Part shown: piece by piece, positions 16,380 through 64,000 of the stretch
How positions within the stretch are numbered: position 1 is the first letter of the stretch
Layout: every line of letters begins with the position of its first letter
NCBI GenBank assembly: GCA_024679065.1
Contig: JAGIQG010000002.1
Location: forward strand, 59,892,001 to 59,956,000
DNA: 64,000 nucleotides
Origin: Sphyrna mokarran
Taxonomy: Eukaryota
Direction of reading: 5' to 3'
Program-made: the position numbers and the translations under genes
Notes under the pieces: model-generated
What the model saw: only the letters and a program-made list of their open reading frames with translations
Databases searched by the model: none
What the model was told of the DNA's origin: nothing

Positions 16380-17780
16380 CCATCTCTTTGCTTGCTCCAA
16401 ATATCAAATCAATGTGAATCCAATTCATGGTCCCACAAGATAAGCATATAAATTCAAGCTGACAAGTAAAGGCATTGCATCTGATCTTGGGCTTGACCTG
16501 ATTATTCATCTTAGTCAAAAGGTCAAGAAGTGATAAACCGAGAAGAACAGGCACTATACTTGATCTAAATCTAAAAGCAGAGAAAAATGAAACAAGTGTG
16601 TTCTAAAATGTTTCCTAATTATGCTGGTTCACGAAGATATTACATTTGTCAGAAATGCAAATAAGCTTGAGCTGAAACTCAGACAGAGTTAGAACAGAAA
16701 AACATGATGTTCAGTGAGCAACATCACAATAATTTGAGGAATTCCTCCATTCTTGGCTGTAAGGCAGAACCACCTAGATGTACTTATGGTGTTGTAGAGT
16801 TGGACTGCTTGTGTGATACCAGGCCATCGCATTGATTGTAGGCTCCTGCTCTGCATTTAGGAAGGCAGAGATGATCTCAACGGAGTATCCTTTTTTGGGT
16901 GTGTCGAACATCCTGGAGCTTTGTGGTAGATACGAGCAGTAAGCTCGTGATGGTGGAGGAGAAAGTTTCTACATCTGATGTCAATGTAGAAGTGAGGGCA
17001 ACAGTGTGATTGGCTGGGTCTCTAAAGAAAGAACCTGCCACCGTTTGTGATTTGCCTGGCACAAAGACAACTGTATATTGGTACTTCATCAACCAGAGAA
17101 CTACTGACTATGGATAGGTATTTTAACAATCTCCATGGAATTGAAGGGTGTTATGAGAGGCTTGTGATCTGTTTCTCCTGGAAGGATATCCTCATCAGGT
17201 AATCAGCTAAATAGCTCATATTTCCACCAGTGCTTTTTGATAATAATGGCATACATTTGTTCAGTTTCCATGGGAGGATTTATTGAGCTGTGTAAGATCT
17301 ACACAAAGCCGGAACTGACCATCAGTGACCAGACTGGAGTACTCCTGGGTTGGCTGTGTGACTAGAGAAATATAGCCAGATGTAATATGTGGTTAAGACC
17401 TTTAATCCTCGGCAATAGTGGTAAAGTAATCTTCTAGGGGTGAACAGACACTGACATGGCATCTGGGAGCAGAGAAATGTGATATTCGATCTTCAGCTTC
17501 ACCAGTTTTTGAAAAAAATTGTAGAAATTTTTGACAGAAAGTGATGGTGGTGTGGGATGGAAGAATTTCATTGATTTTCTGTATGAAGCCTAACTGTACA
17601 CATAACCTCCCTGCCCCCTAGGGTTCGGTTGTGGATGACAAAGAGCTCGTTGATCTTTCAGCCCATATAACATAGGGTGGCAGTAATTTGATCCTTAATA
17701 GGTAGGACTATACCACCCAGCCCTTGGAGTTTTATAGCTTTTGAATGATGAGGAATTGTGCAGAGTAATCCAAGGTAACC
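16380..17780 (-). mobile_element. Decayed Ty3/Gypsy pol fragments (protease-RT linker, RNase H end, integrase start)
   Basis: MKYQYTVVFVPGKSQTVAGSFFRDP resembles the RNase H C-terminal Y.PGK....AD.LSR motif; WIHIDL-like integrase motif at ~16407-16425; many stops and deletions. Confidence 0.75.
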
Positions 17781-44569: not shown

Positions 44570-44722
44570 AAAAGCAAATTATTGTAGATGCTGGATTCTG
44601 AAATCGAAAGAGAAAATGCTGGAAAATCTCAGCAGGTCTAGCAGCAGCTATAAGGAAAGAAAAGAGCTGATGTTTTGAATCCAGATGACCCTTTAAGATT
44701 TTCCAGCATTTTCTCTTTTGAT
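44570..44722. mobile_element. Short Penelope terminal-repeat-derived inverted unit
   Basis: Perfect 23-bp inverted repeat aaagagaaaatgctggaaaatct / agattttccagcattttctcttt; partial hammerhead stem II on the - strand (~44667-44695). Confidence 0.8.
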
Positions 44723-45729
44723 TACTTTTTCAATTTAACTGCATTATACTACAAGCTGTGTGGATAAAGTTGTTTGCTACCTCTGGGAAAATCTTGCCAA
44801 ATTTCTAGCGATTGCTGAAGACTCTGTAAACGATTGGCATAGAACTTGCATTTTGAACATAGAATCTGATAACAAAGTTTGTATATAAACATTAGGAGTC
44901 TTTTCTGCTTTTCCATCAGCTTTGTAGTACCCCCATGCTAAAAATGCTTCTACTTTATAACAATCTGGAAAGTTAGAAGTTTTGTTTCTATCTTTGCCAA
45001 TTAAATAAGGTTAATCTTATTTCAATGTATTTTTTTTCTGAACGGTTTAACTTAACCGCCCATGTAATTTGATATGAACATTCAGAAATCTATTGACAAA
45101 AATATATAGGCTGGATGTATTTTATGAAAGAAGATTTATAGTAATTGATTTCCTGCTATAATGCTGTTTACAATACCAGTACTGTGCTTGTAATATTCCT
45201 CCTTTACTACTTCCACACAGATAAATGTGGCAATATACTTGCGCCTGCTGCTCTAGTGCCAACTCCCGCTGCCACACAGTATGCATGATGTTGCAGCCGC
45301 TAACTAAATCACAGCAGGTTATTGGCTTATCACAGGAAACTTTTTAAGCCCAGGAAATGAATCACCAGGGTTAGCTTACAAATGGTGTTTATTATCATTT
45401 ACTTTTTAGTGCTCAAGGTTTATCTAACTTCTTTTATGCAAGTTATTTTTCTCCTGTCTCTGTGGACTTACTCCTGTTTTACATATCATTTTAGTTCTGG
45501 AATAAGTATCCTAATTGGTTGTATAATTATCAAGTGCCTTCACTGACTTTATCTGGTAATTTGATCTCTATTTAGGTCACATCTGAGATGGTCTCAATAG
45601 ACTTATGCTCATTCAAAACTCTACTGCTTGCATTCTATTTGGTGGGGAGTTTCACCATGGAAATTGTGCAAAGCTTATGATTTTCAATTATTATGTTCCA
45701 AAAACCTTGAGAAATCTGCCAGTGAATAA

Positions 45730-48350
45730 AGATCCACCTGATATCAAGAAGCAGCTGATTGCACTGGATACAGATAAGGCAATGGTCTCTGAGGATTCGC
45801 CGAACCCCCTAACAAAACTTTTCCAGTACAGTTACAATGCTGACATCTACCCAACAATGTGGAACATTGTCCAGGTTTGTGCTGTTCACCAAAGATGGGA
45901 CAAATCTAATCTGGCTAACCTCACGATGCTCCACTCCTCCAGCTTCCACCCCAAACACATTAAAGAAGCCATTCCCCATGGACAAGCCCTCTGTATACAC
46001 AGGATCTGCTCAGATAAGGAGGATCGCTCCAGAAGCTGAAAGATGCCCTCATAAGAACAGGATATGGCGCTCGAACTCATCGATCGACAGTTCTAACATG
46101 CCATAGCCAAAAATCACAGCGACCTCCTCAGAAGATAAACACGGGACATGGTGGACAGAGAACCCTTTGTCGTCCAGTATTTCCCCAGAGCGGAGAGGCT
46201 ACGACATCTTCTCCAGAACTTTCAACATGTCATTGATGGAGATGAATATCTTGCCAAAGCCATCCCTACACCCCCACTTCTTGCCTTCAAACAACTGCAC
46301 AACCTCAAATAGACCATTGTCTGCAGCAAACTACACAGCTTTCAGGAACGACACCACACAATCCTACCACAGCAATTTCTGTAAGACGTAGCAGATCATC
46401 GACATGGATACCATCATCTTACATGAGAACATCACCTACTAGGTACATCGTACATACTCTTGCAACTCGGCCAAAATTATTTACCTGATATGCTGCAGGA
46501 AAGAATGTTGAGGCATGATACATTGGGGAGATCATGCAGATGCTACAACAACAGATGAATGAACACTGCTCGACAATCATCAGGCAAGACAGTTCTCTTG
46601 CTGATGGGAACACTTCAGTAGTCATGGGCATTCGGCCTCTGATTTTCGGACAAACATTCTCCAAGGCAAACTTCATGATGCACGACAACACAGAGTCGCT
46701 GAGCAGAGACTGATAGCCAAGTTCTGCACGTATGAGGATGGCCTCTACTGGAACCTTGGGTTCATGACACACTATCTGTCACCCCCATGACTTGCCTGGA
46801 CTTGCAAAACCTCACTAAATTTCCTATATGGAAACAATACACATCTCTTTAACCTTTGCTTAATGCTCTCTCCACTCACATTGTCTGTACCTTTAAGACT
46901 TGATTACCTGTAAAGACTCGCATTCCAACCATTACCTTGTAAATTGAGTTTGTGTCTTTCTGCCCTGTTTGTGATCAGAATTCCCACCCACTTGACAAAG
47001 GGACAGCTTGTTCTGAAAGCTTGAGGCCTTTGCTACAAATAAATCTGTTGGACTTTAATCTGGTGTTGTGAGACTTCTTTCTGTAATTTCCACTGCACCA
47101 GATTACTCTCACTGATCAGAAAATTGATGGAAGGTTTGAGAATGCTACAATTGCACTTATTTAGCAATGACTTGCTTACTGAGGCTCAGTTTGAGTTTCC
47201 ATAGGGGGACTTGGCTTCTAACCTTGTTATAGCGTTGGTCCAAACTGAATTACAGAGGCAAGATGAAAGTGACTGCCCTTTACTGTTTGACAGAGTGTGG
47301 AATCAAAGAATCCTTGCAAAATTGAAGGCAATGAAAATTGGAAGGAAAACACTTCACCTGCCAACATCATACATAGCACAAAGAAAGATCAGAGTTATTA
47401 GAGGCTAATCACCAGGGATCATTTCAGGGTTCTTCAGGATAATGTCCAAGGCCAAACCATAATCAGTTACTTCATCAATGACCTTCTCATCATCAGAAGA
47501 TCAGAAATTGATTGTTTGGTGATGATTGCATTGTGTTCATTTCAATTGGTGACTCTTCAGATATGGAAGCAGTTGCTTTGCAGAAAAACATGGGCAACGT
47601 CCAGACTAATAATTGGCAATAACATTCCCACCACACAAATATCCACAAAGGCCATCTCCAACAAATGAATAGCTAACTATCTCCTTTGATGTTCAAAGGC
47701 ATCATCATTGTCGAAACTCCACCTTCAACATCCTAGCATTAACTTTGGCCGGAAACTGAACTGGACCAGCCATATAAATACTGTGGCTACAAGAGCAGGT
47801 CAGAGGCTAAGAATTCTCTGGCAAGCAACCCACCTCCTGACTTCCAAAAACCTGACCATCATCTACAAGGCACAAGTCAAAATATAATAGAATACTTTCC
47901 ACTTGTCTAGAAGAATGCGCTTTCAACAACACTCAAGAAGCTTAACATTAATCAGTTTAAATTGACCTCTTGTTCAGCATCACATTCAGCACCTTCAACA
48001 TTCACTCCTTCCACCACAAGTGCACGGTGGCAGCAACCATTTACAAGATGTCACTGCAACAACTCATGAAGATTCTTTTGAAAACTGCTTCTGAGTCTGT
48101 GAACATTACCACTTGGAAGGACAAGGGTAGCAGACACAAGGGAACACCACTATCTGCACCTTCTCCTCAAGCCACTTGACACCTAGAATAATATTGCAGG
48201 ATCAAAATTCTGGCTCTCCCTTCCCAACAGCACTGTGAGTGTACATACATCATATGGAGTACAGCAGTTTGAGATGACAGTTACCAACAGCAATTAATAA
48301 ATACTGTTCTTGCAAGCAAACCTCAAATCCCATGAAGGAACAAGAAAATA
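45730..48350 (+). mobile_element. LINE family B (Jockey group) RT to 3' end, interrupted by Penelope at 45915-47082
   Basis: DIKKQLIALDTDKAM..PLTKLFQYSYN..DKSNLAN, then FDRVWNQRILAKL, FINDL, KLNWTSHINTVATRAGQRL, TIYKAQV. Confidence 0.88.
45915..47082 (+). mobile_element. 5'-truncated Penelope-like retroelement (RT C-terminus, GIY-YIG, terminal repeat)
   Basis: LTMLHSSSFHPKHIKEAIPHGQALCIHRICSD; YLICCR..YIGEIMQML GIY-YIG remnant; end aataaatctgttggactttaatctggtgttgtgagacttct. Confidence 0.92.
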
Positions 48351-55237: not shown

Positions 55238-55766
55238 TCTTTTTATTAATTCATGGGACATGGTATCACTGGCTGGCCAGCATTTATTGCCCTTGAGAAT
55301 GTGGTGGTGAACTGTTTGATGAAGGAGCAGCACTCTGAAAGCTCATGATTTTGAATAAATCTGTTGGACTTTAATGTGGCATTATGAGACTTCTTATTGT
55401 GCCCATCCCAGTCCAATGCTGGCATTCCACATCATAACTACCTTCTTGACAACTGAATGGTTTGCCAGGTCATCTCAGAGGACAGTTGGGAGACAACCAC
55501 ATTGCTGTGGCTCTGGGGTCACATGTCGACCAGACCAGGTAAAGATGACAGATTTCCTTCCCTAATGGAAACAATGGAACTAGATGGGTTTTTCTGAAAA
55601 TCAACAATGGTTTCATGGGTCATCAATAGATTCTTAATTCCAGATATTTTTTATTGAATTCAAATTCCATTATCTGTTGTGATGAGATTCAATCCCAGGT
55701 CCCTAGAACATTCGCTGAGTTTCTGGATTAATAGACTAGCCATAACACCACTAGGCCATCGTCTCC
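55238..55766 (-). mobile_element. Near-complete SINE family 2 copy with a Penelope terminal fragment inserted (55316-55435, +)
   Basis: tRNA-like head on the - strand (gatggcctagtgg A box; gggattgaatctc B-box-like); tail caataaatgctggccagccag shared with LINE family B. Confidence 0.82.
55316..55348 (+). ncRNA. Degenerate minimal hammerhead motif at the start of a Penelope terminal fragment
   Basis: (U)UGAUGA-A-GGAG-cagca-CUCU-GAAA-GCUC; first core C and 5' stem I lost. Confidence 0.55.
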
Positions 55767-56745: not shown

Positions 56746-58344
56746 CTAAATTGCTCATTATGAATACATTCCAGAAAATCTTTGACGAGCTGTGAAGCAC
56801 TTTGACCATTGTGAAGTCATGGTGGGGTCTTATATAAATGCAAGTTCTTTCATTGCAAAACAATTCAAGCATTCTCTTTTCTATTTCAGCTTCCTGAATT
56901 GATTCTCCCTATTTGCACAATCTTTTGAATAACATTCATACTTAGTAATGCACTATCATGGATTGGTACTAGAATTTTCTCAAATTATATGTTTTACACA
57001 TTTTTTTATATCTTCCCAGCTGTGTTTTTGTTTAATGAGCTCAAATTCTAAGAGAAATGGCTAACCAGCATTCTATTTGCTTCACTCTCTCTATAATAGG
57101 ACTCTGTTTAGCCCCAGAAAAGTCAAAACATCATGATTTACCATCTCCCATGATGGATATTTATGGTTCTGAACTTATTGTGACAATTTATGAGGCATAA
57201 CATTTCTAACACTTTCCCACATCTCTACATGCATCATGCTTCGTCAGAACTAGAACAGACTAATTGAAAATGATCTTTCTTTATTAACCCTGAAATGGAT
57301 CAACTTTGATTCTGAAACTGTATTTTAAACTCTTTTTCCTTAATAAGATAAAATGATTCCACTAACGTGGCACTCACAATTTAAAACAAAAAGAAAATAA
57401 TCCATAACATAATTGACAGAACAGGCTAGTGGCTGAAAAAAAATCTCTTTATCATCTTTTTCTGCCAATTATAGGATTTTGCTTCAGGTTGATAGCACAA
57501 TATAGGTGGGCTGATGATTAACATCAATCTGTTCCTTTCTGTGTCTATCTGTCTGATTACAAACATATATGCAGCATGAATGATGAGTGTCTATTTATTT
57601 ATGCAATGTCCATTAAGAATCCATCTTCATCATAATAATGAAATGGTTTCTATCTATGACTTGAATCTGTATATGAAAGAATCATCCTTTGCATTTATAT
57701 ATTGGACCATTAACACTGGATAGAATACTATGAGAAGGTCACTCCACAAAATGGCTCAGAAGCCATAGGAATAATTGATACATATCCTGCTTGGAGGAAT
57801 TGGGATGTTTGTCTACAACCCATTCAAATTGTTTCTCCAGTAATATGAATAGAGTAAAATCAGCAGGTTCACATCAAGTAAGTTAGGTTGAAATATGGAA
57901 GTCTTACTTTTTTGTAGACTTGTAATTAATGAGGAACAAGGTTGTTGATGACTTTCTGTAAGGGAGATAACAGCTGCAATTTGATGTTTTGGTAGTTTCC
58001 AACCAGTTTACAACTCCAGATTTCTTGGTTGCATCTGTGGCTAACGATGCAAATCAGCTGCCTCATGCAGGGAAAGTTACATTGATACATGAAAGCTCAG
58101 TCAAAGCAAAGACATTAGCAAATAGGTACAATTTTTCTTCCTTCAAATCCCCCATTCCTTTTGATCCTGTGATTTTTTTTACAAAGTACAAATGGAGTTA
58201 AGAGGCTCAAGTGATGTTCTGAAACTCTGGCAGTAATTTTAACTACTATAAATAAATGGGATGTTTGGAGTGGATGTTAACGTCTCGAAAGACCTGACCT
58301 CAACCAGCCTCCAAGTGGACTACTTTAAATTTTAATAGAGGTCA

Positions 58345-59792
58345 CACAGGACTTTCAATCGATGCTATACACTAGATACATCAATGACATTTTCTTCCTT
58401 TGGACTCATGGTGAACAATAAGTGAAACAACTATGTGATGATATTAACAAGTTCCACTCCACCATCAGACTCACCATGGACGATTCTCCAGAATCGGTTG
58501 CATTCTTGGACACTTGCATCTCCATCAAGGACGGTCACCTCAGCACCTTACTGTACCGCAAGCCGACAGACAACCTCACAATGCTCCACTTCTCTAGCTT
58601 CCACCCTAGACATGTTAAAGAAGCCATCCCTTACGGACAAGCCCTCCATATATACAGGATCTGCTCAGATGAGGAGGATCATAACAGATACCTCCAGACG
58701 CTGAAAGATGCCCTCATAAGAACAGGATATGGCACTTGACATTGATCAACAGTTCTGATGCGCCACAGCAAAAAACCATACTGACCTTCTTAGAAGACAA
58801 ACACGGGACACAGCGGACAGAGTACCCTTTGTCATCCAGTACTTCCCAGGAGTGGAGGAGCTACGACATCTTCTCTGGAGTCTTCAACATATCATTGACG
58901 AAGATGAACATCTCGCCAGGGCCATCCCCACACCCCTCATTTCTTGCCTTCAAACAACCGCACAATCTCAAACAGACCATTGTTCGCAGCAAACTACCTA
59001 ACCTTCAGGAGAACAGTGACCACAACACCACATAACCCTGCCACAGCAACCTCTGCAAGACATGCCGGATCACCGATATGGATTACATCATCACACGTGA
59101 GAATACCATTCACTGGGTACACTGCACACACTCTTGCAACTTTGCCAACGTTGTCTACCTAATCTGCTGCAGGAAAGGATGTCCCGAAGCATGGTACATT
59201 GGGGAGGCTATGCAGACACTATGACAACGGATAAATGAACATCGCTCGACAATCACCAGGCAAAACTGTTCCCTTCCTATTGATGAACGCTTCAGTGTTC
59301 AGTGTCTGACCTTCGGGTAAGTGTTTTCTAAGGTGGCCTTCACGACACCCGACAGCACAGAGTCACTGAGCAGAGACTGATAGCCAAGTTTCGCACACAT
59401 GAGGATGGTCTCAACAGGGATCTTAGGTTCATGTTGCATTATCTGTAACCCCCATGAATTGCCTGGGTTTGCAAAACCTCACTTACTGTACTGTCTGGAG
59501 ACAATATACATCTCTTTAACCTATGCATAATGCTCTTTCTACTCACATTGTCCGCATCTCTAATAGTTGAATAGCAGGTTAGTTGTAAAGATTCACATCC
59601 TAATCAGTAATTTGTAAACTGTCTATGTTGTTATATGCTCTATCTGAGGCCAGAACTCTCCATTCACCTGACGAAGGGGCAAACCCTGAAACCTTGTGAG
59701 TTTACTATCAAATAAATTGGTTGGACTTTAACCTGGCGTTGTCAGACTTCTTACTGTGTTTATCCCAGTCCAATGCTGGCATCTCCACATCA
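58345..59792 (+). mobile_element. 5'-truncated Penelope-like retroelement (RT, GIY-YIG, terminal repeat)
   Basis: RYINDIFFLWTHG, VAFLDTCISIKDGHLSTLLYRKPTD..FHPRHVKEAIPYGQAL; NVVYLICCRKGCPEAWYIGEAMQTL. Confidence 0.95.
59663..59700 (+). ncRNA. Minimal type-I hammerhead ribozyme motif in the Penelope terminal repeat
   Basis: UUCAC-CUGACGA-AGGG-gcaaa-CCCU-GAAA-CCUU-GUGAG: intact core boxes, 5-bp stem I, 4-bp stem II; stem-III palindrome AAGCUU (seen at ~47017) mutated to AACCUU. Confidence 0.75.
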
Positions 59793-60699
59793 TGGCAGAG
59801 AGAGCCAGGCCTGCCTGTCAGACTGCTTTTCAGATAGAAAGCTTGCCAGAGGAAATAATGAAGCGCCCTGTGGAGCTCAAACCACATTTAGTTGGACATG
59901 TGCAAAACAACTGCTTACGACTCATGTAGCCTACCCCAATAAATATTGCAGCCTTCATTATTGTAGAGAGTATGATTTCTGAACATTCGAAACACTCTGA
60001 AAGGGGATTCGCATATGGGATTTTGATTAATTTATTGAAGCCTGGCCTTTGCTCTATGGGAATATTATATTCCAAATAACAAATAAGAAAGGAAATTGAC
60101 ATACCATATGTCTATTTCCTTCTTACTTGAACCTGTGTTTACTCTCCTTACTGAGGTGAACAAGCCAAGAGGATTCCTCCATTTCAATGAATAGCGATGT
60201 CTGTGGCAGTATTACTTTGCCAGCGAAACACTGACAGTATGTTGCCTGTTCCAAGCCCTGCAGCCAAGTTACAGGGCAAGCGGACCACTTGCTGCTGAAA
60301 TAAAGATGATTGTTACCTAAATGCCTTTGCCTCGGGCTTCCTTCAAGCTATTACAGGAGACATCAAAGGATAACCTGATTCTGTATGTTACAGCCCATTT
60401 TCCTGACATGATACATTTCATCTTACACCAGTCATCATTGACCCATTATTTGCTTCTAGGCAACAAGTACGAGGCCGGCACCTTGGAGATGTAAACTACT
60501 CACTGCAGGTTTGAAATCCACACGTACCTGCTGAACACAGTAATGATCAAGTTTATGTTTCAATGAAGCCTTTATCAAGCAAAAGATTAGTCTCTTGATT
60601 TAAAGTTTCTGGCATCTCAATGGTCATCACAGGGACACCCGCTAAGCTAGTTCAGAGTGACAAGCTCTATCAGTCTTTTCTGCACCCTCACAACTTTAC

Positions 60700-61240
60700 T
60701 TTAAGAAGTCTCATAACACCAGGCTAAAGTCCAACAGGTTCATTTGGTATCATGTGCATTCGGAGAATTGGGTTCACAAAGAGGGTATATATATATATAT
60801 ATATATATAGTATGTATGTGTATATGAAAGAGAGAGAGAGAGAGAGACAAAGACTCAATTGCAAGAGAAAGGTTGGAATGCGAGTCTTTATAGGTAATCA
60901 AATCTTTAAAGGTACAGACAATGCAAGTAAAGAGAGGTTTAATCACAGGTTAAAGAGGCATGAATTGTCTCAAGCCAGGACAGTTAGAGCAGGCAAATGG
61001 TGGGGGTTATATGTAGTGTGATTACAGTTGAAGCCATCCTCATGTATGCGGAACATAGTTATCAATTTCTCCTCAGCAATTCTGCATTGTCATGTGTCTT
61101 CAAGGCTGCTTTGGCGAATGTTTACCCAAAAATCAGGGGCTAAATATTGGATACCAAAAAAACCTGTTGGACTTTAACTTGATGTTATGAGACTTCTTAT
61201 TGTGCCCACCCCAGTCCAATGCTGACATCTCCACATCATC
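60700..61240 (-). mobile_element. Penelope 3' end (-) joined to an inverted terminal fragment (+, 61150-61240); contains (TA)n and (GA)n microsatellites
   Basis: Antisense of 46620-47080; inverted repeat taagaagtctcataacaccaggctaaagtccaacagg / cctgttggactttaacttgatgttatgagacttctta. Confidence 0.88.
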
Positions 61241-62050: not shown

Positions 62051-64000
62051 GGACCACTACAAGGACAATGGATAAATGTTTCCAAAAAAACTAAGTGTGT
62101 TTTCAATTAGGTTCTTAAATCAGTTTGGAATTATGGTTAATAGGTGGTCCTAATGTTATGTGTTAGTCATAGGAGTATCATTTGGCTATTCCCAGCAGAA
62201 TCCCATGCATATTTAGGATTCAAAAAGCACCATTAAGATGTTTTACAGGAGTAGTTAAGCTTCATGTACCTGGGAAGAATCTTGCTGCAAGATCTAATTT
62301 TTTGTGCACCGTAACCGTATTTGTAGGTCAGATATGCCCTGAAGAAAATATTTAATAAGGTTTTGTTCAACCAAGAGTCAAAACCACTTTACTCAGCCAC
62401 CACTTAAACAATTATGTTAATAATAACTGTTGGTTAGGAGCCTCATATGGAACAGCGAACCTAGGCTCGAAGAGGAAAAAAACTGATTCCTTTTCAAGGC
62501 CTATTTGCAACTGAAGATGATTCCGTATTCTATGCACAAATTAATTTATAAAATAGCATACATTAAACTATAGTTATGTTACATGTTTAGCAGGTTGAAC
62601 ATTAAGCGATTGGTAGGCCAGCAATGCAGGACTACTGTGCATGCGCCGATGGTGGGAAAAGGCCCTGCCCCCTGATTTTTTCATGCAAATCATGCTGGGG
62701 CACTGTGCAAAGCGTGTGAGAGATCCATTTTGAAAATCCTGCTTAAAACAAAACCACAGGGTTTACTCCAGTTTTTATGTGAATTTGGCACTTAGAATTT
62801 TTTCCATGTATCTTTTTACATCAGTCTATATGGGTGGTTCTCTTCCCCAGTCTCACATTAAACTTTGTCTGCCAAATACCCTTATATAACAAGTTAAAGT
62901 TGACAAGCTACCCATTGTAAATGCTCCCACCTTAACTTTGAGATCTTCTGACTTATTCTGAAATTACACGAATTTAATCACAAGCCAAAATGATTAACCA
63001 AGGTTCTAATATCCAGCCTGTGGAATCTATGGTTAATAATCACAGCATGGAAAACTACATCGATTATCTTGTTTCACCTTTTATTTAATTTCACTTTTTA
63101 TTATATTAAACTTATAAATCTCTTGAAATAACTTAGGGTAACTTATTTCAAATTTCAAAAGTTGTTCGTACTTCTGGGACCATGATGATTTGACAGATGT
63201 GAAATATTTTGTATCATAATTGACTAGACAGAGGCAAACTCCAAGCCTAAAAATTCCCGAATTGAGATTGTGAGGGTGGAAGCTGGTTGGGTCAGATTAT
63301 TTTGTGCCATTTCAAGTGTTGAAGGATCCTGTGTATGGTTTGCTTTATTTATGCAAAGACTTCATTTTAAGATATTTCTGCCTATGTAACTAACTCTGCT
63401 TAGCTTAAAAAATTAACTTGACTAATTTTAAAATTTGCAAGGCATGCTGGGTTAGCTAGAAATTGACTGCATTTTTGAAAAGCATAATGCAAGCAAAACA
63501 GTCTTTTTGTAAGTGAAACAAAGTTTTTTGTAAACAACATCTGCAAGGCCTCCAAGTTAGAGATAGCATGTGCAAAACATTTTCAATATCAAAGATAATG
63601 AAAGACATATATTGTAGTTTCAGCTTTGTGTCTGCAGTTCAGTTCAGTTTTGTTTATGAGTTGTGTTTGATCAGAATCTCTCTTTCCAGCTTTTCTTTTT
63701 CTGTTCACTTTTGTAATTATTTAACTTCAAGTTCTGTTCAGTAAAAGAAATTCATTTCAATATCATACCAATGCTGTCTTCATCTATTCTAAGAAATGAA
63801 TGGACCCTACCACGAGAATCTGCTGGACTTATCACACATCCCTTGGATTGGGTCATTTGAATATATGGTGTGTCATTCCAGCAGCGAACAGCAGAAGCAT
63901 CTAAGTGACTAAGGAGGAAGAATGTGTCGTGGTGCCAAACTGAAAAGGGGATTCAAATTCTGGATGGAACGAAAAAGACACATGGCTGGATGTTTCTCTG

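Follow-up and report, generated by a model that had tools for sequence, protein, structure and literature searches.

A short sequence in the Sphyrna mokarran genome resembles a minimal hammerhead ribozyme, placed just ahead of an AATAAA in a terminal repeat of a Penelope-like element (PLE). Is it a genuine self-cutting motif, and did cleavage there process the RNA that the family copies into the genome? The initial annotation of this DNA proposed both. The window, meaning the whole stretch of DNA analysed, is 64,000 nucleotides long and corresponds to positions 59892001-59956000 of contig C771, and the genome searched amounts to 2.77 Gb. The features of the window are gathered in the table below.

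Table. Features of the window (positions in the window; cells are empty where nothing applies)
Feature	Position	Strand	Basis or remark
Minimal type-I hammerhead (index copy)	59662-59701	+	letters, alignment to family, folding
Stem I, AUUCAC/GUGAGU	59662-67/59696-701	+	index copy
CUGACGA core box	59668-74	+	index copy
Unpaired A between core box and stem II	59675	+	index copy
Stem II, GGGG-CAAA-CCCU	59676-87	+	index copy
GAAA core box	59688-91	+	index copy
Helix-III palindrome, broken at 59692	59691-94 (ACCU)	+	index copy
Predicted cut	59695/59696	+	index copy
AATAAA	59711-59716	+	16 nt past predicted cut; no change across subfamily tree
5'-truncated Penelope-like (Neptune-type) insertion, putative type: RT end, thumb, zinc linker, GIY-YIG, 3' pLTR, tail	58343-59794	+	blastn, tblastn, Pfam on relative
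3' pseudo-LTR (pLTR), from ORF stop (TAA 59446-48) to tail end at next-unit ATG (59792-94)	59449-59794	+	23/357 aligned positions differ from subfamily consensus
PLE tail region	59753-59794	+	index copy ends at distal 3'-end site
Candidate 76-nt GT-AG intron	59578-59653	+	ends 8 nt before stem I
Second, older truncated copy, no tail	45917-47084	+	decayed hammerhead 46987-47027, AAGCUU palindrome intact
Third copy, short stub beginning at hammerhead core, with tail	55316-55435	+	C3U
Head-to-head pair of further decayed family fragments	60699-61239	60699-61197 -, 61152-61239 +	family matches
Partial U2 snRNA-like match, probably a pseudogene fragment	16386-16589	-	below Rfam cut-off (30.7 bits, E 0.025)
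Long imperfect inverted repeat, probably a short repeat element	44587-44741		weak miRNA-model matches
SNORD36-like match	63700-63771	-	just under cut-off (28.6 vs 30 bits, E 2)

The first answer is positive, as the index motif is confirmed to be a real but mutated copy of the self-cutting RNA motif known from Penelope-like elements. The letters that had been annotated, namely the CUGACGA and GAAA boxes, the paired stem I (UUCAC/GUGAG) and the AATAAA downstream, are all present at the annotated positions. The proposed stem II, AGGG/CCCU, does pair, but its register is shifted: the family has an unpaired A followed by GGGG-CAAA-CCCC, and the annotated register appears because C11.1 has been lost through CpG decay, leaving a G-U pair at 10.1-11.1 in the index copy. 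In an alignment of 149 relatives to this copy, 117 copies align at position 11.1, with C in 59 and T in 56. The index copy folds by itself into stems I and II (-11.1 kcal/mol, z -1.4; 15 of 200 shuffles are equally good), and folding on its own is weak evidence for the hammerhead. A relaxed hammerhead scan of the window matches the index site and the 55316 site only. The Rfam scan of the window (E<=5) returns seven weak matches, with no hammerhead or other ribozyme model among them; minimal hammerheads score below the Rfam hammerhead models. Genome-wide, the strict family pattern CTGAYGA-N12-22-CGAAAGCTH-N14-26-AATAAA gives 19,141 matches, against 1 for the reversed pattern used as a control, and therefore the motif is not due to chance.

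The host element can be followed through its relatives. The insertion aligns with a young unit over 1473 columns (blastn, 83.6%) and matches, in several frames, residues 542-913 of an intact-frame relative (tblastn). Its GIY-YIG endonuclease (EN) region is frameshifted and contains stops; in young relatives, frames of 770-1000 codons are open. In the intact-frame relative, Pfam places the reverse transcriptase (RT) domain RVT_1 above its cut-off (E=2e-9) and GIY-YIG just under it (E=3e-4, 21.3 bits for a cut-off of 22.6), with the VVYLI and YIGET motifs present. A C-X4-C-X2-C zinc linker separates RT and EN at residue 775 of the L123 frame. From this linker and the RT/GIY-YIG layout, the element is probably of Neptune type, the CX2-5CxxC linker being given in sections of PMC8557442 as a mark of Neptune that is common to Nematis. 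The hammerhead stands in the pLTR, 220 nt past the ORF stop, and the index copy is joined without a break to 1.1 kb of RT/EN coding sequence. In the young tandem pLTR-ORF-pLTR copy L124, whose unit is 3026 bp long, both repeats contain a hammerhead, and the cut is followed by the ATG at +101. The annotated location inside a Penelope terminal repeat is thus correct. Family 3' ends fall at +58-70 or at +100-112 from the cut, and the usual features of EN+ PLEs are present: pLTRs, partial tandems, an inverted 5' copy and an optional tail. Among 289 neighbouring pLTR pairs in targeted loci (overlapping loci included), 195 are head-to-head, 45 direct and 49 tail-to-tail.

Upstream of stem I, the candidate intron has a donor-like CAG/GTTAG in most subfamily upstream consensuses and an acceptor-like YAG in all of them. 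It may be the counterpart, by analogy, of the 75-bp intron of Drosophila virilis Penelope, whose transcription start is placed 46 bp upstream of that intron in the portion of PMC2377424 used here. No spliced joint across it was found in four contig sets, and no intron-less copy among 163 copies; contigs assembled from each of the 4 runs contain the element but are uninformative on ends, strand and level. At the other end of the pLTR, the sequence just past the AATAAA is complementary to the tail (59721-59775, GTTGGACT/AGTCCAA). In a young copy, the AATAAA-proximal sequence and the tail form, when folded, a long stem that takes in both 3'-end sites, possibly an RT-start stem-loop according to this modelled fold. 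The tail end (59778-59790) shows what we take to be a resemblance to the 3' end of tRNA-Ala, and this may be chance, given that younger subfamilies alter that stretch. One young element with an open frame (L131, G000:C738:56877300-56887299) sits within tandemly repeated units of about 30 bp.

How far the index copy has decayed is seen against the family form, UUCAC CUGACGA A GGGG CAAA CCCC GAAA GCUU GUGAG, whose 36-nt core is letter-perfect at 62 genomic places. The minimal type-I fold with a palindromic, loop-less helix III, invoked in the initial annotation, is a property of the family, in which an AGCU duplex stands in for helix III. In the index copy this palindrome reads ACCU. Of 125 copies aligned at position 15.2, 110 have G and 3 have C, which is also the letter of the index copy, and the self-duplex energy is +3.2 kcal/mol for the index copy vs -4.9 for the family form. 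Because the palindrome is lost at G15.2, the index copy is unable to form helix III, and it is predicted to be inactive as a ribozyme. The sister copies annotated at ~46989-47025 and 55316-55348 are indeed homologous and do differ in stem II, but both are mutated in the core (C3U and G8A in the 46992 copy), and the 55316 copy is without the 5' strand of stem I. On folding, the hammerhead stems are not the minimum-energy structure of either one. The three window copies come from separate subfamilies within a single lineage, and the stem-II differences between them are therefore genuine covariation at the subfamily level. Further along, the plus-strand fragment of the head-to-head pair begins about 11 nt past the cut. 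Partial decay of single copies, as annotated, is evident in all three hammerheads. Across the family, core and palindrome are both intact in 18 of 94 copies from the older group, to which the index copy belongs, vs 75 of 100 from the youngest, with truncated copies counted as misses.

Beyond single copies, the family has kept the motif through about 20 successive subfamilies. A profile search of 2.03 Mb of retrieved sequence matched 645 times, which came down to 609 distinct copies. Clustering was limited to the 373 whose core could be parsed and whose flanks were long enough, and it produced 20 subfamilies of at least three copies each, so that the subfamily consensuses are drawn from copies chosen for a recognisable core. 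Members lie 1-10% from their own consensus, and the 20 subfamilies form a ladder. The CUGANGA and GAAA..UH core, the unpaired A between 9 and 10.1 and the AGCU palindrome (15.2-16.2) are found in 20 of 20 consensuses, with pair 10.1-11.1 being G-C in 16 and G-U in 4. On the 20-subfamily tree, parsimony places no change on the 11 core positions, the unpaired A, G10.1 or the GC of the palindrome; the 55 downstream columns have a mean of 0.6 changes, with 58% unchanged (0.58^15 is about 3e-4). This invariance is not solely an effect of the filter, because the core is likewise seen in copies selected only through downstream anchors. Across subfamilies, N7 takes all four bases and N17 is C, U or A, never G; these are the tolerant positions of hammerheads. 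Pairs 1-3 of stem II are paired in all 20 subfamilies, and their nine changes on the tree consist of four double substitutions and five passages via G-U, none of them breaking the pair, while pair 2 of stem I went from A-U to G-C by double substitution. The five inner stem pairs together thus show five double substitutions and no break, which bears out the covariation suspected in the annotation. The stem II score is reached by none of 20,000 permutations, in a test that ignores relatedness. We infer that selection on active masters kept a cleavage-competent fold through about 20 masters.

The outer pairs of stem I are broken in several masters, including the four youngest, of TATAA/TAATA type (2-4 pairs). 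Stem I length shows no overall trend with subfamily age (rho 0.006). In the youngest amplifying subfamilies (s0-s2 and s4, e.g. L124:3240-3280:- and L090:2253-2294:+), stem I has only 2-4 pairs, G10.1-U11.1 is found in three of these subfamilies, and a change of N7 from C to A, G or U has abolished the CpG beside the catalytic G8. In terms of energies only, the family dimer fold is at -23.5 kcal/mol vs -28.6 for the best dimer.

The second question, whether cleavage shaped the copied RNA, can be put to the 5' ends of the copies. Because reverse transcription starts downstream of the cut, stubs starting at +1 are expected from RNA cut in the copied repeat (positions are counted from the predicted cut). 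To map 5' ends, we took five sets of copies from contig C1, each recognised by an anchor lying past the cut (100 of 3,208 matches, 94 of 1,788, 23 of 5,808, 22 of 4,969 and 22 of 3,206), and scored the ends against subfamily-specific references; the anchors hide ends past +24. Among the 261 mapped ends, 93 lie further upstream than -60, 116 at -60 to -21, 18 at -20 to -4 and 34 at -3 or beyond, with 4 within 2 nt of the cut and 2 at +1. Ends at -6 to -9 and at -35 in a single-consensus end map were miscalls, now superseded by the subfamily-specific references. In the older group, 24 of 94 ends are at or past the cut, spread over +1 to +22, vs 5 of 100 (p=8e-5), and this group is shorter overall, with 17 of 94 vs 42 of 100 ends beyond -60. 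Stem I strength was rejected as the source of the downstream ends (young copies with a strong stem I, 3/45, vs a weak one, 5/100; p=0.70). The 49 long young copies examined begin at scattered positions.

Starts were also counted genome-wide for the index group, at -3, +1 and +3 with three mismatching flank letters, a design in which the +1 pattern leaves out perfect fold-back junctions. The counts, which are raw and have no genome-wide denominator, are 23, 45 and 58 (23 vs 45, p=0.01). Internal deletions probably account for 12 of the 45 starts at +1, and fold-backs for 10 of the 58 at +3; after cleaning, the 33 left at +1 compare with 23 at -3 (p=0.23) and with 48 at +3 (p=0.12). Neither the 261 mapped ends nor the three genome-wide start patterns reveal a spike at the cut, and the claim that the family's transcripts were processed by self-cleavage is not supported by this evidence. 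At the cut there may be a small step, or a footprint involving 1-3% of copies; a blurred trace of cleavage could also lie behind the older group's excess and the raw rise from 23 to 45. When all loci were scanned for fold-backs, none of the 20 junction rows was a symmetric one at +1. Two insertions, at G000:C668:66142153-66142208 and C860:29800971-29801026, are perfect fold-backs in which each arm begins at +3, the same +3 junction as in the fold-back rows of the +3 count. Long insertions have their 3' ends 58-112 nt past the cut, and each therefore requires RNA that is intact at that point, either uncut or re-joined.

The RNA copied into the genome is thus likely to be mostly uncut, and we give a probability of about 0.6 to cleavage acting late or on a separate RNA pool. 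The family hammerhead would cut slowly, needing a partner hammerhead or an element protein, and the cleaved RNAs would be other molecules than those copied into the genome. Reverse transcription would start 58-112 nt downstream of the cut and run through the intact hammerhead, and stubs ending 21-60 nt upstream of the cut would stop near the 5' end of an RNA made from the pLTR promoter, their copying having begun at the RT start site of the 5' repeat. The pile-up at -60 to -21, which consists of DNA ends only, is most simply read as that RNA 5' end. RT pausing or template switching are other conceivable sources of it, and a start upstream of the intron, as in the D. virilis element described in parts of PMC2377424, would lie near -160 instead of near -50. 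If cleaved, the 5' repeat would lose its cap and the 3' repeat its AAUAAA and RT start sites; the likeliest role of cleavage would therefore be late trimming or self-limiting turnover, presumably of tandem and read-through transcripts, and not the making of template. On a wider and more doubtful view, which we offer tentatively, the lineage would be a dated natural mutagenesis series: a hammerhead selected for catalysis through about 20 masters even though the inserted RNA is uncut, acting as a self-limiting switch by which transcripts lose their cap, poly(A) signal and RT start. The youngest masters may then be loosening the switch (stem I of 2-4 pairs) while amplifying, and DNA alone would reveal, through the stub ends at -21 to -60, where the RNA starts.

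The alternative that fares best, although we consider it unlikely, is the model of Cervera and De la Pena set out in the part of PMC4209133 drawn on here, in which dimer cleavage in a tandem transcript is followed by ligation to a circle and reverse transcription around it, producing tandems of more than unit length. Tandem copies such as L124 do exist, a re-joined circle would keep the cut site intact and predict no +1 spike, and the palindrome is kept in all 20 masters. A circle, however, has no end and leaves the 116 of 261 ends at -60 to -21 unexplained; neighbouring pLTR pairs are mostly head-to-head, which puts the second hammerhead in antisense; and the anole element uses unprocessed RNA in vitro (PMC11167929, in the results drawn on here). 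It is quite improbable that self-cleavage routinely makes the 5' end of the copied RNA, as the HDV-like ribozymes of R2 elements do: the older group, in which 24 of 94 copies start at the cut or past it, and a raw +1 count twice that at -3 would fit, but only 2 of 261 ends are at +1, the +3 count is as high as the +1 count, ends at or past the cut show no link with stem I strength, and the long young copies have scattered 5' ends. Equally improbable is a motif kept as a folded signal (for protein binding, or for promoter or RT pausing) or as a passenger whose cutting is no longer needed. In its favour, the youngest subfamilies have a short stem I and several have G10.1-U11.1, yet 3,208 copies match their exact 35-nt anchor, and PLE clades without canonical hammerheads proliferate well (PMC8557442, in part). 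Against it, the positions that vary are precisely N7 and N17, where catalysis tolerates change, and the inner pairs are never broken, as expected of a ribozyme; stem I length, moreover, does not track age overall.

Compared with known systems, for which we draw on portions of the cited papers, the index motif belongs to the minimal hammerhead (min-HHR) class of metazoan PLEs, already known for fish Neptune elements. Such hammerheads have been described in the pLTRs of metazoan PLEs, including the fish elements Xena, Poseidon and Neptune, and the activity of their dimers is low (PMC4209133). The family shares with them the type-I topology, the absence of loop 3, the palindrome at 15.2-16.2, the unpaired nucleotide between 9 and 10.1, G10.1-C11.1, and the occurrence of many variable families in thousands of dispersed, truncated copies. 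It differs by a stem II of 3-5 bp, vs 7-8 in Schistosoma (PMC4209133), and by variants that form one ladder-like lineage, orderable by age. No description of shark or ray PLE hammerheads was found in titles or the starts of abstracts, and the portion of PMC4209133 drawn on here names no cartilaginous fish, although its supplements, or those of Li et al. (2026), may list them. Non-LTR retrozymes also carry type-I hammerheads related to those of PLE pLTRs, in a study that sampled one chondrichthyan genome (Li et al., 2026, 10.64898/2026.07.22.740005, in its portion used here). Unlike these short tandem arrays, the copies described here are truncated ends of an autonomous 3-kb element, and the index copy does not consist of the short, ORF-less tandem units, each with a hammerhead, by which retrozymes are recognised. 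With Neptune EN+ PLEs the element shares a C-terminal GIY-YIG, a Zn-finger-like linker between RT and EN, partial tandems, an inverted 5'-truncated copy and a tail of 30-40 bp (Craig et al., 2021, PMC8557442, in the sections cited), and the role of the PLE hammerhead is called unclear there.

The closest functional parallel is PAc, a Poseidon element of Anolis carolinensis, whose hammerhead cuts only with protein and whose hammerhead mutants still insert, with no RNA-seq reads ending at the cut (Frangieh et al., 2024, PMC11167929, in the results drawn on here). Both elements have a pLTR hammerhead upstream of two RT start sites that define a tail, and neither shows a sign of cut RNA as template. 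PAc belongs to the Poseidon clade, and its ORF starts inside the hammerhead, with the cut 26 nt past the ATG (PMC11167929, same sections); here, by contrast, the ATG lies 100 nt past the cut and the tail is untranslated. The motif itself is to be expected in such elements. What this genome offers is a set of natural variants ordered by age, with strong and weak stem I, together with young tandem copies whose frames are intact, and its map of genomic ends agrees with the one in-vitro study, as far as the part of it drawn on goes, in that the template is not made by cleavage (PMC11167929).
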